IMG/VR virus record: IMGVR_UViG_3300011008_000025
Coordinates: 31,036-95,035 of that record
Length of the DNA stretch: 64,000 bases
DNA from: a virus
Lineage: Duplodnaviria > Caudoviricetes
Strand: one strand, 5' to 3'
The notes beneath the pieces were generated by a model. That model did no database searches. It was not told the origin of the DNA and worked only from the letters and a program-made list of their open reading frames with translations. Below are positions 26,017 through 50,503 of this stretch, piece by piece (position 1 is the first letter of the stretch; each line of letters opens with the position of its first letter). Both the position numbers and the translations under genes were made by a program.

Positions 26017-26427
26017 ATGAATACAACGGAGTTTTCAAGGTTGTTTGCGAGCCAGTATAACGTCAGTGCGCAGACGGCTGACACGTGGGTGCGATCCATT
26101 TTTGAGTTCCTATGCGAACAGCTTCCTGTGAACCAGGAGATCAAGATCGCCGGTTTCGGCAGCTTTCGGCAGAAATATGCGCCGGCAAGACGGTATCAGG
26201 ATTGGGTTACCGGCAAGATCATGACATCTAAACCGCATATGGACCTGACTTTTGTGCCGTGCGCAAAGCTCGATCGGAGCATGCGCGACGTGCCGATCAT
26301 TGAAGAACCTATTAAAAAGGGCGGCCGTAAAAGCGAGCTGCCTGTGCGCGGCAGTGCGCCGCACGATGTCGAGTATATCGACGAGGAAATACATGATGCT
26401 GAAGCGGTTGAAGAGGAGAAAAAATAA
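26017..26427 (+). CDS. HU/IHF-family DNA-binding protein
   Basis: IKIAGFGSF....PARR...TGK motif. Confidence 0.85.
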   Translation: MNTTEFSRLFASQYNVSAQTADTWVRSIFEFLCEQLPVNQEIKIAGFGSFRQKYAPARRYQDWVTGKIMTSKPHMDLTFVPCAKLDRSMRDVPIIEEPIKKGGRKSELPVRGSAPHDVEYIDEEIHDAEAVEEEKK

Positions 26428-26562
26428 CGCCGCGTAGTGCTGTAACACCACGCGGCGGCGCCTCAGAAAGCCTTACAGATTTCATTGTAAGATCGGGCCC
26501 CGCTTGCACGGGGTTACCAAATAGACACCAGGGTCTATTGATCCACAATGAAATAAAGGCGT
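26419..26562 (-). ncRNA. antisense sRNA (~140 nt) with three-way junction and terminator
   Basis: Own promoter; stems GCCTT/AAGGC, ATTTCATTGT/ACAATGAAAT, AATAGAC/GTCTATT and CCCCG/CGGGG; terminator CGCCGCGT/ACGCGGCG + TTATTTTTT. Confidence 0.78.
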
Positions 26563-26568
26563 ATACAC

Positions 26569-26598
26569 ATTATACTCGTAATCTTGCAGTTTTGTCAA
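26569..26598 (-). promoter_or_regulatory. sigmaA promoter of the sRNA
   Basis: TTGACA-N18-TATAAT. Confidence 0.8.
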
Positions 26599-26619
26599 AA
26601 GGAAAGGGAGGTGAGACAA

Positions 26620-27678
26620 GTGGGTCGCAAGGTACAACAGAATAAGATTACGTCGCCGGAGAAGCTGGCGGCGGTCAATCCGAAAAATATGGAGCTGAAA
26701 CGGGACTTTCTGGCCTACTTGCGCTCCATTCAGAGGTCGCCGAACACCATTAAGGGGTACGATAACGACCTCGATATCATTATGGTGTTCCTGCTGGAAC
26801 GCTGTGGCAACAAGGAGTTTGTCAGCGTTAAGAAGCGGGAATGGGTGGCCATGCAGGACTGGATGGTCAACGAAAATGGCAACAGTGCGGCGAGAGTGCG
26901 CCGTATCAAGGCTGTGATCAGCAGCCTGTCCAATTATGTGTCCAACATTCTGGCAGAGGACGAGCCCGATGAATTCGGCAGTTTCAAGCCTACGATTCGC
27001 GGCATAGAAAACCCGGTAAATACGCCGGTTATGGAGAAGACGGTACTCAGCGACGAGGAGGTCAACACCGTGTTGTCTGCCCTGATGGACGCAAAACAGT
27101 ATGAAAAGGCTTGCTACTTTGCGCTGGCTGCGTTCAGCGGGCGCAGAAAAAGTGAGTTGTTCCGCTTCAAGACGGAGCATTTTGGTCCAGATCATCTGAT
27201 CTGTAACGGCGCTTTGTACTCTACGCTAGAGACGATCCAGTCGAAGGGGCGCGGGGTTACCGGCAAACAGATCGTGTTTTATACGCTGGCGAAGGACTTT
27301 CAGCCGTATTTCGACGCGTGGATGCAGTATAGGGAACAAATCGGCCTCGACAGTCCGTGGATGTTCCCCGATCCGGACGACCCGACGCAGCCAAGAGATC
27401 ACAACATTGCTAACTCGTGGACGCATACGTTCAGCCGCGTGCTGTTTGAGAGCACCGGGCGCGCAGACAAGATCTATTCGCACGCGCTGCGGCACTACTA
27501 TACGACTCGCCTGAGCAAGAGCGGTGTGCCGCACAATGTGATCAAGGAGATCGTTGCGTGGGAAGATGTGTCTATGGTTGCGCGATACGACGACACAGAC
27601 GTCGCGGAGAGTTTCTCTGACTACTTTACGGCGGATGGTATTAAGGGCACTGAGAAGAAATCGCTTAGCGACCTGTGA
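26620..27678 (+). CDS. tyrosine recombinase (XerC/D-like) with N-terminal SAM-like domain
   Basis: RSPNTIKGY, SGRRKSEL, SHALRHYY, VAW...MVARY. Confidence 0.9.
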   Translation: MGRKVQQNKITSPEKLAAVNPKNMELKRDFLAYLRSIQRSPNTIKGYDNDLDIIMVFLLERCGNKEFVSVKKREWVAMQDWMVNENGNSAARVRRIKAVISSLSNYVSNILAEDEPDEFGSFKPTIRGIENPVNTPVMEKTVLSDEEVNTVLSALMDAKQYEKACYFALAAFSGRRKSELFRFKTEHFGPDHLICNGALYSTLETIQSKGRGVTGKQIVFYTLAKDFQPYFDAWMQYREQIGLDSPWMFPDPDDPTQPRDHNIANSWTHTFSRVLFESTGRADKIYSHALRHYYTTRLSKSGVPHNVIKEIVAWEDVSMVARYDDTDVAESFSDYFTADGIKGTEKKSLSDL

Positions 27679-30512: not shown

Positions 30513-32105
30513 TTGGACGATTATGAAGTGGAATATATGGCAACGCCGATCGACGAGAACACGGTTCTGGTCACGTCGGATCACGATGCGGCCTGGATTG
30601 AAGAGCGCTATGACGAGATTCTGAGAAGTGCGCTTGAAAATTATCCAACCGCCGCACACAACTCTGTGATTGTATCGGATACCACGAGTGGGCAGACGCT
30701 GTCGCTGGACTACATCGATCAACTTGCGTCCGGTCTGAACTCCAGTGTGGCCAATGTCATTACGGCAAATGCCATCATCCTTCAGAAGATCCTCTCGGAC
30801 GCCTTCTTTGGGCAGACGTATGAGTCTGTTGTGAAGAATATCAACACCGATTATAAGTTGTCATACGGACGATACGAAGAGGATAACGACTATGCTGACG
30901 TGCTCCCCGATGTCAAGGCGGCTATTAAATACTTTAATCAGTCGGTTGGCATCAAGCGCCTGATACGGGATGCTATCTCCGGCACATATGCCGAAGGTAA
31001 CTACGTGCTGTATCTGCGCAACGACAAGAATAAGCGGCCGACCATTGACTGGTATCCGCTTTCCATCGCGTATCCTTCGGACTATTTATATGATCACCGC
31101 AACGTGATCGAGTTCTCGATCGACAATCTGAAGTCGCGGCTGCGCAAAACCTATCAGAAGACGCGGAAGAACAAGGCTGTCTATTATGAGAACATCGACA
31201 AAGAGGTTCAGGCCAACTATCCGAAAGAGGTCGTGAAGGCGTATCGGGACGGAGAAAAGATTGTGCGGCTTGATCCGCGCTACTCCGATTGCGTGAAGTT
31301 CAACAGCATGGGGCGCAAGCTCGGCGTCAGTCCGCTGTTCCGCTGCCTGAAACCGCTGATCGTACTTGATCAGATCCAGGCTGCTGACGTATCCGACAGT
31401 AAAGCGCGAAGCAAGAAGATCATCTTTCAGAAGCTGCGCAAGGAGCTGCTTGGTAGCGACGGTACGCGCAAGGGTTTCGCTGAGGCGGCGCACGCTCACG
31501 AGCAGGCTGCCCAGGCACTCAAGACGAACTTTGGTCTGTATACTGCGATTCCGGCTGTTGAAGATATGTATTATGTGCAAGCAAAGGCGCAGTCCGAAGA
31601 TTCTATCAACCAGCAGAAGGAGTATACGTCCAAGCTGCTGACCGCTCTGGGTATTGGCTTTACGGACAGCGGGGCCAGTCTTGGCGCCGTGAAGATCTCC
31701 GTTGCCCAATTGCTCAAAACCGTCAATGCGATCGGCGAAAGCTTTGAAGACGTCATGTACAAGTTCTACAGAACTTATCTGGAGGACTGTGGATTTGACC
31801 CGGAGCTCGCTCCGACCATTAAGGTTATCGACTCCGAGCAGATGGAAATGGATGTGCGCAGACTGCTTGCTGGCTTTGTGTACAACACGCTGAATGGTTC
31901 TCGGCGTACGGCGATGAATATCCTCGACATCGATTACGATGACGAACGCGCCAAGCGTCAGCAAGAGAATGAAGATGGCGACAATGATATCTTCTATGCC
32001 CGCGAGACGTCTTATACCGCAAGCGGTAACAGCGGCGGCAGACCGAAGGGCGACGATGAAAATGGCCGCCAGGATTATGACGAGTCCTATCGAGAGGATA
32101 CTTAA
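30513..32105 (+). CDS. portal protein
   Basis: Position after terminase; ~530 aa; TTG start after AAGGAGGTGA. Confidence 0.75.
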   Translation: MDDYEVEYMATPIDENTVLVTSDHDAAWIEERYDEILRSALENYPTAAHNSVIVSDTTSGQTLSLDYIDQLASGLNSSVANVITANAIILQKILSDAFFGQTYESVVKNINTDYKLSYGRYEEDNDYADVLPDVKAAIKYFNQSVGIKRLIRDAISGTYAEGNYVLYLRNDKNKRPTIDWYPLSIAYPSDYLYDHRNVIEFSIDNLKSRLRKTYQKTRKNKAVYYENIDKEVQANYPKEVVKAYRDGEKIVRLDPRYSDCVKFNSMGRKLGVSPLFRCLKPLIVLDQIQAADVSDSKARSKKIIFQKLRKELLGSDGTRKGFAEAAHAHEQAAQALKTNFGLYTAIPAVEDMYYVQAKAQSEDSINQQKEYTSKLLTALGIGFTDSGASLGAVKISVAQLLKTVNAIGESFEDVMYKFYRTYLEDCGFDPELAPTIKVIDSEQMEMDVRRLLAGFVYNTLNGSRRTAMNILDIDYDDERAKRQQENEDGDNDIFYARETSYTASGNSGGRPKGDDENGRQDYDESYREDT

Positions 32106-32135
32106 TAAACCAACCCGGAGGCGTGAACCTCCGGG
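32104..32135 (-). terminator. intrinsic terminator of the antisense toxin transcript
   Basis: CCCGGAGG/CCTCCGGG stem + TTGGTTTATT. Confidence 0.65.
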
Positions 32136-32144
32136 CGGGCAATT

Positions 32145-32237
32145 TTACAGCCGATGGCTGCGGAAGTAATCTACTGCACGAAACAGTAGCTCGACGATTG
32201 CGCCGCCGAGTATGTTCATAAGTAAATTATCAACCAT
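32145..32237 (-). CDS. 30-aa type I toxin-like hydrophobic peptide
   Basis: GAAGGAGG-6nt-ATG; MVDNLLMNILGGAIVELLFRAVDYFRSHRL; the RBS pairs with CCTCCTTCC at the 5' end of the transcript. Confidence 0.75.
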   Translation of the reverse strand: MVDNLLMNILGGAIVELLFRAVDYFRSHRL

Positions 32238-32367
32238 CGCGTGCCTCCTTCCCGGCATGTGAGCATGCCTTGTTGCACCCTACGCGACTATGGGTGCTGC
32301 AGGGACAACACTATCCCGCGGGTCGTTAGCACGGGCGTCATGTGCCTCGGAAGGAGGTTGCGTAACT

Positions 32368-32396
32368 ATTGTAGCATATCAACATCTGTTATGTAA
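32368..32396 (-). promoter_or_regulatory. sigmaA promoter of the toxin-like mRNA
   Basis: TTACAT-N17-TACAAT with extended TG. Confidence 0.65.
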
Positions 32397-49100: not shown

Positions 49101-50503
49101 AGCTTCAGGAAAAACTCATGGAGCTTGAGCGACTTAAAAACCAGAAGACGCTTCGCATCTATCGTGACGGCGTCGGGTTTGTGTATGAGGCGGATACCGT
49201 GGCGATTCAGGAGGCGCAGGATGCTTATGATGCGCTTGTCGACGACATTAACAACGATGAAGCGCAGAAGCGTCTTGATAAGCTTAAGGAGGCCATCCAA
49301 AACATCACCGGCCGATATGGTCTGGAAAAGGATAAGGCGCTCGCTGCTGCCATTCTCGGGCCCAACTGGGAGAGCAGCTGGTCTGCCTTTATTGCCAAGC
49401 TGGCCACCAATGACGCAGATAGCGAAGCGATTTTCTCCTCCCTACTCGATGAGGTGCAGGACTATACAGACGAATATTCTCTTCTGTCTTCCAAGGTGGA
49501 TGAAGATGTTGAGGGCTCTATTTCCGATCAAATCAAATCTTTGGATGATTTAAGCGACGCATGGGATGACTGGCTGGATGGCGTTAAAGACGCAAATTAT
49601 CAGTATGTCGATGCGTTGGATTATGTCGGGATGGCTGAAATGCAGATTTTCAGTAATAGGTATGATACACTGTCTACTTTTGTAGATGCGTCCGTAGCAA
49701 AGCTGTTGGAATTAAATGCTGCCATGGGCTCCTCCGGAACTTCTCTGAGCGGACTGACTTCGCCGTTTGGTGCGACCATCATGGCGCCCGCCGGCACGAC
49801 ACTCACTGTCTCTGATGATTCATACGAAGGCCGCGTACGTGGCTTATCAGAATTAGCATATAGTGACGGAGCTGCCGTCAGGGCTTATGCGGATGAAAAT
49901 GGTAACATCGGTGCATATTATATTGCTCATGCAAAGTCTGTTGCTCATGGACAGACGGCAGACGCGGCGCTAGCATATCTGGACGCAGGAATTCGCTCTG
50001 GTCAAATTTCTAAAGAGGATGCCGCCAGTGCGCTCAATGAAATTATTGACAGGTCTAGTATCCAGAGCAATCGCGAAAAGTATAGGACGTTTTTACACGC
50101 CATTGAAGATCTGGAAGATGATGATTATGATCGAAAGTGGCGAGAATATGCATCTGGCGGCGTTGTGGATTATACCGGTCCGGCTATTGTACACGGCGCA
50201 ACTTCCAGCGAAGTTATCTTTAATGGCAAAGACGCGAAGAAACTGTATGAGTATGTCCACGCCACACCAGACTTAGTTTCAGCTATGCTTGCCAGGCTTG
50301 GTATTCCGGCAGTCGGCGGTGCTCTTAATATCGGCGCATCGGTCAAACCAAGCCAATATGGCTCGGTTAACGCTGACAGTAACACCATCAGCATCGATAT
50401 AGGTTCTATCATTTTGAACGAGGTTCAGGATGTCAATGGTTTGGCCAAAGCTATCGAAATGGAGCTTCCTGCCGCAATCACACAAATGCTATATAAACGT
50501 TAA
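43106..50503 (+). CDS. tail tape measure protein (TP901-type core), probable ATC start
   Basis: ~2460 aa helical protein; EIDDAMTQLRIVT...FSRLGY core; YASGGVVDYTG C-terminal motif. Confidence 0.92.
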   Translation: MAGQDNIARVTWGVEGGSRVGGATYDLIAKELNEIANKLSEDGRRPRVTFGVANTAEDLQKELTRVVGSKPLQIDVGFTPSSKSAQSVSKYSHDVIESYTKSIQQVSALGNIMMEKQARAQIQAQLDTARRYYDEYDQIINKRPKISDNIKEAKEQFANWAAINTDPDGDWERFVIRMHNGKLALQEVNEAWRSVNQDDPGAIKAFFNEINDAATQVDDRIQELESRLESNDLDTSKYGAKVKEILVSKYGEVINETNAALEANGFEALSVDKILQLNPDEISQYLSSTLGTVMEQVETQVEAQPQQANALRFQADDSPEAIEALRASIQALVSSVNTDSYNLKFVADTSAEGLSAFSESLSAFKELNSGQPIEVKVTTGTSQEAVNELIKSVRTLWQQIQSDQLPIQFKPAEGTLDELRTAIGAALEEAVAVKVRLDGAESVDLSKEQEAFSQLNDAIKAHSDLMGKAELAELSKGDTAIELTKALEEEAEAFKKSADQMREYVKYLDANSQKLTKATQLSDKMRQQLKDQTTASQASEAKRKAETAAIEQQTAALQRENAELENNKLKRQEANALGREKSGQAKAWNTLNNQVADYADTAKLAEKEAEYNSLVDTIHKRNGDLSQAQIAWTNLKKQLDDFRKEARKTTQDVNKANSAQLSNTKLQNKLTDYYHQFERQIKLHPELLARYNTALESLKTDKFNQNTRQAAKEVQDFMVACEEAGINGIHPLQNLIGGFWNKLKFGSLAALAGSVRRLARQVYTNVVEIDDAMTQLRIVTGATGSEMNQFFAKSTDLASKLGKSVKDVLGSIETFSRLGYTLEESSTLAEYANILSNVANVDASAATTGLTSIIKGYNLEVSDSEHIADVLINVGQKYAISASELMDAFERGGAALYASGTEFEKSAALFAASNSAIQNADKVGTAFQTVSARIRKSESELEELGADYEDIANGMSKYRDELKALTNVNGTGGFDIMMDADHYKDIYDIFVGIAEVWDKMTDPQRARTAEILGGTRQLSIISSTIAAISDAEGALNDAMNSTGVAAAAQDLYMQSITGHIQQLSADFQKLSYDLLNSNIVKNIVDAADAAVKFIDKMAEAKAIVPTLVAAGAALAVIVQHAKVFGYAKYIDILKESIKGLSGDALDAAKSMLGVAEANKKVAATATGLTTGIGLVVSVLSTVIAAYQKYKQEQREAWEAGVEAGKSAKDNADELTSLVAKYEELVEARKTDLGVQRELYDAQKQLSEALGNEGLSVDNLAKRYRGLTTSRLADARIAAQSAVSDAESFLFDATRTKSKIGITVGVGDSSYGIVTGWSRDSAATNQSIIEALRSAGFAPSSETSRGAAFDFIDEDLTTVDSILRVYEQVAQMRRIAGDIDVNSNVFESLDKIYRGLSDAVTQYTTTVSNNNEVVAQEILWQQSLSNELPQTEEEFKKYRASLIMSVVAGGNYINNGIAIGDVIDALLSKDDRFVRFFEDGADAVNDTAGAVYNAATSFEKLDKFKDAISSLNDAFDDLSADDSTGITYSHLKKIKEEFADVDGVDTYIARLSAAGTNAEEVNKILNELATAKLRDEAATLAGAGANEDLIRALLEEAGVTNAAETAADTLAVAEGKVALQAAIAKGKIDEFIDNLRSEAVYSDNAKNELYRLAAQMILTNQTNMDMSQQINELKKVALAAGVASVAVASVVQSIDKPEIVKPSQRGLVTDSGTGGGSALDKLWALIDEQTSGGTTAYDFADLEKDKTSSGGGSSSSKTENETRIEEIVKEYENATSSLQYELNLLERQYEHLEANGDLDGMNANLAKQAELQQQLKDAAHKTADELRAFRDEAELAADEAAEVDKQLDALSSDWYDADKDRRAAMKQSFDNQLEALEDYIDRCNDLNDWGADNEVDARKRALDLLEDANRQGLLDYKDYCDQHKDMTKALYDAEMDALNDYVDAMQKAIDKQKEFLEEQKEAVEKEMSGYDAVVNALSDLIDDVTSSLEDENSELEKQKELQEKLMELERLKNQKTLRIYRDGVGFVYEADTVAIQEAQDAYDALVDDINNDEAQKRLDKLKEAIQNITGRYGLEKDKALAAAILGPNWESSWSAFIAKLATNDADSEAIFSSLLDEVQDYTDEYSLLSSKVDEDVEGSISDQIKSLDDLSDAWDDWLDGVKDANYQYVDALDYVGMAEMQIFSNRYDTLSTFVDASVAKLLELNAAMGSSGTSLSGLTSPFGATIMAPAGTTLTVSDDSYEGRVRGLSELAYSDGAAVRAYADENGNIGAYYIAHAKSVAHGQTADAALAYLDAGIRSGQISKEDAASALNEIIDRSSIQSNREKYRTFLHAIEDLEDDDYDRKWREYASGGVVDYTGPAIVHGATSSEVIFNGKDAKKLYEYVHATPDLVSAMLARLGIPAVGGALNIGASVKPSQYGSVNADSNTISIDIGSIILNEVQDVNGLAKAIEMELPAAITQMLYKR

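Follow-up and report, generated by a model that had tools for sequence, protein, structure and literature searches.

We analyzed a 64,000-nucleotide (nt) stretch of viral DNA (the window; bases 31036-95035 of the 95-kb IMG/VR virus record IMGVR_UViG_3300011008_000025), in which a short minus-strand transcription unit is situated between the gene for an HU-like DNA-binding protein and a tyrosine recombinase gene. An earlier note, made from the sequence alone, had described this unit as a stand-alone small RNA (sRNA) gene. Comparison with near-identical phages indicates that it is probably the shell, that is, the promoter, 5' untranslated region (5' UTR) and terminator, of a decayed type I toxin-like peptide moron in an SPbeta-like phage of Oscillospirales. 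The unit is homologous to longer alleles in sister phages, from which it differs at exactly placed deletion junctions; it is present in some relatives and absent from others, and its promoter and terminator are intact. An autonomous promoter, a structured RNA and a terminator are thus present as described, but they do not appear to make up a purpose-built sRNA gene, the unit being a deletion derivative of a peptide gene found in sister phages.

Transcription unit, long alleles and insertion site

The features of the unit are as follows.

26381..26604, minus strand: whole accessory segment, 224 nt, delimited by alignments with relatives; holds the transcription unit
26569..26598, minus strand: consensus sigma-70/sigma-A type promoter (TTGACA at 26598-26593, 18-nt spacer, TATAAT at 26574-26569; score 12/12)
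26480..26553, minus strand: structured leader, putative former 5' UTR (computed fold; the helices recur in the long-allele fold)
26520..26521, minus strand: deletion junction 1, where the 22-nt hairpin GCUGUACCGCCCAGGAGKACAA of the long alleles L124 and L125 is gone (unit positions 45-66)
26479..26480, minus strand: deletion junction 2, where 83 nt of L125 are gone (unit positions 108-190)
26463..26479, minus strand: remnant of an open reading frame (ORF), UC UGU AAG GCU UUC UGA, comprising the last four codons and the stop, without start codon and without ribosome-binding site (RBS)
26418..26457, minus strand: intrinsic terminator (13-bp stem with 9 G-C pairs and a 4-nt loop at 26457-26428; U-tract TTATTTTTTC at 26427-26418)

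In a near-identical phage (L125), we observe the same promoter, leader and terminator as in the window, together with one additional 22-nt hairpin, a Shine-Dalgarno (SD) sequence and an ORF. The 3' strand of the closing helix is followed there by AAAGGAGAATGGT-ATG, with the canonical RBS AAAGGAG, and then by a 29-codon ORF for the hydrophobic peptide MRQLMSDVADVASILGLMLVVLQLVCKAF, the stop codon of which lies just upstream of the terminator stem shared with the window. When aligned with the L125 unit, the window allele consists of three blocks, 1-44 (100% identity), 67-107 (100%) and 191-250 (98.3%), with positions 45-66 and 108-190 missing; the 83 nt missing at junction 2 contain the SD (GGAG) and the ORF from its start codon through codon 24, plus the first base of codon 25. 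The second long allele, L124, has the same ORF with a single, synonymous difference (TTG/TTA) and has no SD, owing to the absence of 11 nt, AAAGGAGAATG, at a point flanked by AATG direct repeats. Both long alleles have a promoter identical to that of the window. The window allele is real and not an assembly artefact, since two other assemblies, a JGI contig and a 94.8-kb ENA contig (L137 and L138), reproduce it base for base. Altogether, five distinct sequences of essentially one phage species show four states of the locus: intact, RBS-deleted, ORF-deleted and empty site. The centre of the terminator also differs between alleles, reading GTGGTGTTACAGCAC in the window (26428-26457) and in L125 and nearly the reverse complement of this, GTAGTGCCATAACAC, in L124 (1845-1874), which looks like an inversion of the tip of the palindrome with the stem kept.

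With respect to history, we propose that a self-contained cassette was acquired between the HU-like and recombinase genes, and that it originally would have consisted of a consensus promoter, a multi-hairpin 5' UTR, an RBS, a 29-codon ORF for a hydrophobic single-helix peptide, and a terminator. In the window phage, two internal deletions would have taken out one hairpin of the leader and the stretch from the RBS through codon 24, start codon included. Since the perfect promoter and the terminator persist, along with most of the leader, a structured RNA of about 140 nt is probably still produced as an empty mRNA shell, presumably with no function of its own.

The expression signals themselves agree with the description in the earlier note: the TTGACA-18-TATAAT promoter (12/12, minus strand), the roughly 100 nt of structured RNA with a three-way junction, the U-tailed terminator, and the absence of both an RBS and an operator are all borne out. 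Transcription is predicted to start near 26562 on the minus strand. Perfect TTGACA-N16-18-TATAAT sites number three in the window, this promoter included, compared with 0.04 expected; the other two, TTGACA-N16/17-TATAAT promoters on the minus strand, are found at 2801-2829 and 5777-5804, the former directly adjoining an operator copy (2830-2843). Folding of the minus strand over 26415-26565 yields a long closing stem that encloses two hairpins, plus the terminator hairpin, with a minimum free energy (MFE) of −63.2 kcal/mol and a stability well beyond that of shuffled sequences (z = −5.75). In the closing helix P1, 26553-26540 pairs with 26494-26480; hairpin P2 occupies 26539-26520, and hairpin P3 (CCCCGU-GCAA-GCGGGG, 26513-26498) is the arm that had been likened to a type I-E repeat of a clustered regularly interspaced short palindromic repeat (CRISPR) system. 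The U-tract of the terminator overlaps the stop and last codons of the convergent HU-like gene. Neither an SD nor a plausible ORF was found in the window transcript, and the unit probably gives rise to a non-coding RNA of about 140 nt, as judged from these signals. The 14-nt operator motif of the phage has nine copies in the window, the nearest to the unit at 21358. Eight copies of this motif, TCAGAAWTAGGGTA, with at most one mismatch lie between 1802 and 21371 and one more, with two mismatches, at 49847 (0.45 expected); the good copies are all in the early/regulatory half, and two of them (21271 and 21358) are just upstream of the operon of the YonO-like polymerase.

The unit is an accessory insertion at this gene junction. 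Relatives were retrieved via a large protein database and exact-sequence look-ups, and in the closest of them (L002, L126 and L129; recombinase 95-97% identical at the nucleotide level), approximately 30 nt of unrelated sequence replaces 26381-26604. In L002, the closest relative found via the recombinase (protein 97% and DNA 95% identical), the HU stop is 14 nt before the recombinase start, and the HU-recombinase junction of L126/L128 and L129 is likewise without the element, as are three relatives with 59 to 63% recombinase identity. The HU-recombinase gap in relatives is 14 nt or an overlap, the gap upstream of the recombinase gene in 65 more distant loci, taken from genomes, is mostly <100 nt, and no similarity to the element was found in 69 related loci. 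The accessory segment also encodes the last codons of the HU-like gene, so that the tail of this protein is altered by the insertion (136 amino acids [aa] in the window versus 131 aa in phages without the unit); the 90%-identity HU protein cluster includes both forms, and the contigs with the 136-aa form carry the unit. Searches with the recombinase protein found no close relatives in viral or metagenome contigs, and searches with the element sequence gave just chance-level short matches in the INPHARED phage collection and in 401 Oscillospirales genomes. Exact-pattern scans of IMG/VR and JGI metagenomes returned 0 matches both for the hairpin with its flank and for a pattern of the two P1 strands separated by a gap of variable length.

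This distribution corresponds to that of phage morons, which are known from lambdoid comparisons as independent promoter-gene-terminator cassettes between two genes of one phage that are absent in relatives. Like morons, the unit sits at one gene junction, where it is present or absent among near-identical phages, and it has its own consensus promoter and terminator, which are opposed to the surrounding operon. It differs from them in carrying a 29-codon ORF behind a long leader and in that this cargo is deleted in the window, where the expression signals alone remain. The same comparison bears on the opposite strand: stem-loops acting as a cis leader or attenuator of the recombinase/terminase operon would be in keeping with a plus-strand transcript of the HU gene that must cross the element, with hairpins that also form in the complementary RNA, and with a terminator hairpin that is without a U-tract on the plus strand. 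Such a role is barely credible, however, as neither the closest relatives nor about 65 more distant ones have the segment, their HU and recombinase genes being joined directly, and both the promoter and the U-tailed terminator belong to the minus strand.

More generally, a unit of promoter, structured RNA and terminator that looks convincing in one genome can be all that is left of a decayed small-protein gene, and near-identical phages, through presence or absence and internal deletions, settle such a question quickly. The four states within one phage species form a natural series for asking whether peptides of this kind are costly.

The 29-codon peptide gene and the fate of its transcript

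The peptide encoded by the long alleles has a polar acidic N-terminus and a hydrophobic core of 15 to 17 residues (maximum 15-residue Kyte-Doolittle mean of 2.62). The promoter of the mRNA is strong and looks constitutive. The long-allele leader measures about 115 nt, with a closing helix that runs right up to the SD, and the whole message is enclosed by a predicted helix between its 5' and 3' ends, GCCUU/AAGGC. Such features are characteristic of type I toxin mRNAs in Gram-positive bacteria. Helix P1 ends in the long-allele fold at AAA directly 5' of GGAG, and the SD could pair with CUUU of the 5' end. An ORF of the type I toxin kind (<60 aa, hydrophobic, membrane-spanning) is present only in L125 and L124 and not in the window. 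We infer that the peptide may be a membrane-active toxin of the type I kind, the translation of which would be restrained by the leader.

This is in line with SPbeta itself, which has the type I toxin modules bsrG/SR4 and yonT/SR6, such modules being typical of prophages (PMC5848175, PMC6563280). The long allele resembles these two modules and those of Clostridioides difficile phiCD630 in its 29-aa single-helix hydrophobic peptide, its own strong promoter and its terminator, as well as in a long structured 5' UTR abutting the SD and in its location in an SPbeta-like temperate phage with a second unit of the same kind. It differs from the modules of SPbeta and other Firmicutes in that no antisense RNA or promoter for one was found, in that there is no similarity to described toxin families, and in that the ORF is deleted in the window, from which no toxin can be made.

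A further parallel is offered by Fst/RNA I-RNA II (par of pAD1), in which leader helices of the toxin mRNA restrain translation. The peptide N-terminus, M-R-x-L-M-S-x-V, may recall that of Fst, but hmmscan of the 29-aa peptide against Pfam, including Fst_toxin, reported 0 families at E ≤ 10. Unlike in the par system, there is here no convergent RNA II sharing the terminator, and there are no direct repeats. Read-through from the HU operon could give an antisense RNA, though not a dedicated antitoxin. A tblastn search over all collected loci found no paralogue of the peptide, and in distant relatives, the larger gaps that precede the recombinase gene showed no small hydrophobic ORFs. One weak peptide match, in phage SPR, proved to be an unrelated 64-aa ORF and was rejected.

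A second autonomous unit on the minus strand (32104-32396) is situated between the portal and protease genes and has the layout of the intact L125 unit, without sequence similarity to it. It has a promoter of the extended −10 type, TG-TACAAT (9/12), and a leader approximately 125 nt long, the 5' segment of which, CCUCCUUCC, is able to pair with the RBS GGAAGGAGG; an intact 30-codon ORF for MVDNLLMNILGGAIVELLFRAVDYFRSHRL (32237-32148) and a terminator at 32136-32113 follow. In the long mRNA of the first unit (L125 2645-2770, minus strand), three hairpin loops contain CCWGG, namely CCCUGGU, CCCAGGA and UCCUGGGA, and the window counterpart is at 26528-26534; the CCCUGGU and CCCAGGA loops are complementary over 5 nt, so that a loop-loop contact is possible, and the second of these loops is lost in the window.

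Several observations weigh against a decayed toxin gene as the origin of the unit. The MFE fold of the long allele has the SD adjoining P1 but unpaired. No antitoxin RNA was found, with neither a plus-strand promoter facing the ORF (in L124) nor complementarity in trans, and searches of Pfam, PHROGs, NCBIfam and the PDB with the peptide gave no toxin family. Its C-terminus has a single lysine and not the lysine-rich or charged tail that is typical of type I toxins from Gram-positive bacteria (PMC6563280). Furthermore, of the 145 transcribed nt that are retained, a single one differs from L125 (99.3% identity), when the flanking genes differ from L125 by about 5% and the HU tail (26381-26427) by about 25%; a binomial estimate for at most one difference in 145 nt at the flank rate is about 0.007. 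This high identity could reflect purifying selection on the RNA, or it could reflect a recent exchange of the cassette between phages. Lastly, the polarity of change is read by parsimony from three alleles only.

Because there is no antisense promoter, no complementary RNA, no family match and only a single C-terminal lysine, we call the intact gene only type I toxin-like, and we put the odds that the peptide acts as a toxin at roughly even. Loss of expression was apparently tolerated or favoured, because L124 lost its RBS independently. Two independent expression-killing deletions fit a costly product, and they also fit neutral decay.

As to polarity, the short form could instead be the original sRNA gene, with L124 and L125 gaining the hairpin and the RBS-ORF later; only three alleles are at hand, no outgroup has the unit, and the polarity is not formally rooted. 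We nevertheless regard this order of events as very unlikely. Deletion is far likelier than insertion, because inserted DNA with an SD, a start codon and 24 1/3 codons would have had to join, in perfect frame, four existing codons and a stop just before the terminator, and the 11-nt gap of L124 between AATG direct repeats is a signature of slippage deletion.

A different question is whether the remnant RNA has become functional in its own right, as a trans regulator, a sponge or a protein decoy in the lysogen. The perfect promoter without operator, the intact terminator, the stable fold (z = −5.75), the near-identity of the retained parts to the long allele despite flanks that differ by about 5%, and the occurrence of the allele in three assemblies all speak for such a function, and yet it seems unlikely. 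The RNA belongs to no Rfam family: the search proposed in the earlier note gave no match at the gathering score for the short form, with a best E-value of 1.2 for a match of the terminator alone to the trpB motif and nothing at permissive thresholds, and the long alleles had no match with E ≤ 1. The phage database, the 401 Oscillospirales genomes and the scans of viral and metagenome sequences gave no homologue, and the three alleles have too little sequence variation for covariation. The window allele has lost one leader hairpin, contrary to what a constrained structure would lead one to expect. For both the short and the long form, complementarity in the 95-kb phage does not reach 12 nt, with 11-nt matches at chance level, and the duplex energy with the toxin-like unit at 32104-32396 is that of shuffled RNAs; the trans-acting antitoxin that the earlier note had offered as an alternative finds no support here.

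The long allele represents a gene, not described before, for a small hydrophobic peptide. Its leader is complex, and it belongs to SPbeta-like phages of gut Oscillospirales, a group in which type I toxin-like modules are hardly charted. The window allele may also be a snapshot of a non-coding RNA locus arising from an mRNA.

The CRISPR repeat-like hairpin

The 29-nt repeat-like arm is at 26490-26518 (minus strand), with a 16-nt core, CCCCGTGCAAGCGGGG, at 26498-26513. It had prompted the suggestion that the RNA might be an RNA anti-CRISPR (Racr), with the hairpin GGUAACCCCGUGCAAGCGGGGCCCGAUCU mimicking a type I-E repeat and sequestering Cas6e or Cascade subunits of the host. When the 401 Oscillospirales genomes were scanned for the hairpin core (≤2 mismatches), two of them (G081 and G204) showed regular 61-bp arrays with repeats of the form (C/G)T(T/G)TTCCCCGCGTAAGCGGGGGTGATCC. 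Cas6e (PF08798) is encoded in 12 of the 401 genomes (3%) and adjoins the two arrays where checked. Six Oscillospirales I-E repeats were compared with the hairpin, two from these arrays and four read downstream of Cas6e genes.

The likeness to I-E repeats holds for the 16-nt core stem-loop and does not extend to the flanks. The core of the phage hairpin is identical to the G081/G204 repeats (CCCCGCGTAAGCGGGG) at 14 of 16 positions (87.5%), and both differences keep the 6-bp stem and the GNRA loop (C-G to U-G in the stem, GUAA to GCAA in the loop). On the 3' side of the stem, all six I-E repeats have [GA]TGA[TA]CC, in contrast to CCCGATCT in the phage, which is paired in P1. The six repeats also have T-rich 5' flanks. 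The phage has CCCGAUCU after the stem, where it takes part in the closing helix, and GGUAA before it. Over their whole length, the six repeats reach at most 57% identity (ungapped), and the best match in a blastn-short search with SRUFinder-style settings covers 8 of 28 nt. SRUFinder defines a solitary repeat unit (SRU) by an identity of ≥90% across ≥50% (partial) or ≥90% (full) of the repeat length (PMC10651486), and against the six Oscillospirales I-E repeats, the hairpin falls short of these values. Its context is that of an SRU, with a perfect promoter about 50 nt upstream of the hairpin, a segment that is single in the 95-kb record, and no cas genes as neighbours; published Racrs have a promoter within 250 bp upstream (PMC10651486).

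The same 16-mer is found in 23 other viral contigs, which is about the chance expectation, and roughly one-third of these copies are T-tailed terminator hairpins. Only one of the 23 contigs has the 16-mer in an I-E-repeat-like context. In IMG/VR contig 3300037484_000502 (558-573; L122), a single CCCCGTGCAAGCGGGG is followed by ATGAACCG, a typical I-E 3' handle, and to judge by its letters, this copy looks like a better candidate for a solitary I-E repeat than the window hairpin. Among the 33 spacers of the two I-E arrays, none has a significant match in the phage or in related loci. In genome G204 (contig C72, near 14399; L098), we also observe a solitary repeat copy, TGTTCCCCGCGTAAGCGGGGGTGATAC, about 7 kb from a 14-repeat array and beyond the cas genes.

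Compared with RacrIE1/2 and RacrIF1 (PMC10651486), the window RNA is alike in being a short non-coding RNA with a strong phage promoter and one hairpin with an I-E-like stem and tetraloop. It is unlike them in that its identity and coverage remain below the SRU thresholds, its flanks do not imitate the 5' and 3' handles, the hairpin is one part of a larger junction, the leader of a peptide gene, and there are no acr neighbours. A Racr role would draw on the 14/16 core with its structure-preserving differences from real Oscillospirales I-E repeats, on the strong promoter within 250 bp and on the presence of Cas6e in 12 of the 401 sampled genomes; with flanks that differ, ≤57% identity and 8/28-nt coverage, an identical 16-mer that occurs elsewhere as a plain terminator hairpin, a hairpin that in the long alleles is part of the 5' UTR of a peptide gene, the rarity of I-E systems in the candidate host order (3%), and the absence of spacer matches and acr-type neighbours, we consider it highly improbable. 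P3 is a generic, very stable stem-tetraloop within the leader of a peptide gene, and a stem-loop alone is insufficient for calling Racrs.

A variant joins the two ideas, with an I-E-like hairpin that would be no accident: the intact toxin mRNA might be cut by host Cas6e at the base of the hairpin, and the ORF-less leader, if abundantly transcribed in the window phage, might survive as a decoy of Cas6e or Cascade. Such a cut would separate the SD region from the 5' strand of the closing helix. If true, an RNA anti-CRISPR would have arisen out of a toxin gene's leader, but we attach very little probability to this.

Phage, neighbouring genes and host

The genes surrounding the unit are listed here in their order along the window.

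22112-24916: gene for a YonO-type single-subunit RNA polymerase, 934 aa (phrog_8308, weak RdRP signals)
Between the YonO-like polymerase gene and the HU-like gene: metallophosphoesterase-like gene
26017..26427, plus strand: gene for the HU-like DNA-binding protein, 136 aa, left neighbour of the element (Pfam PF00216; stop at 26425-26427)
26620..27678, plus strand: tyrosine recombinase gene, right neighbour of the element (Pfam PF00589)
3' of the recombinase gene: gene of unknown function, then the large terminase (Pfam PF03354) and portal genes

Judged by the gene content of this neighbourhood, the phage is SPbeta-like, and within the phage collection its terminase finds its best matches in SPbeta-like phages that infect Bacillus, Staphylococcus and Clostridioides (30 to 39% identity). 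The placement of the unit in the late region, as given in the earlier note, is roughly right, since it lies between the HU-like gene, at the end of the YonO-like polymerase block, and the recombinase/terminase block. The host is probably a gut member of the Oscillospirales, because recombinase homologues (45 to 54% identity) occur in genomes and metagenome-assembled genomes mostly labelled Oscillospiraceae, Acutalibacteraceae, Ruminococcus or Clostridia.

In L002 (5098-7059), the large terminase gene is apparently split after 416 codons by an HNH/DUF7487 gene, an insertion of the homing-endonuclease type, whereas the terminase gene of the window phage is uninterrupted (591 aa).

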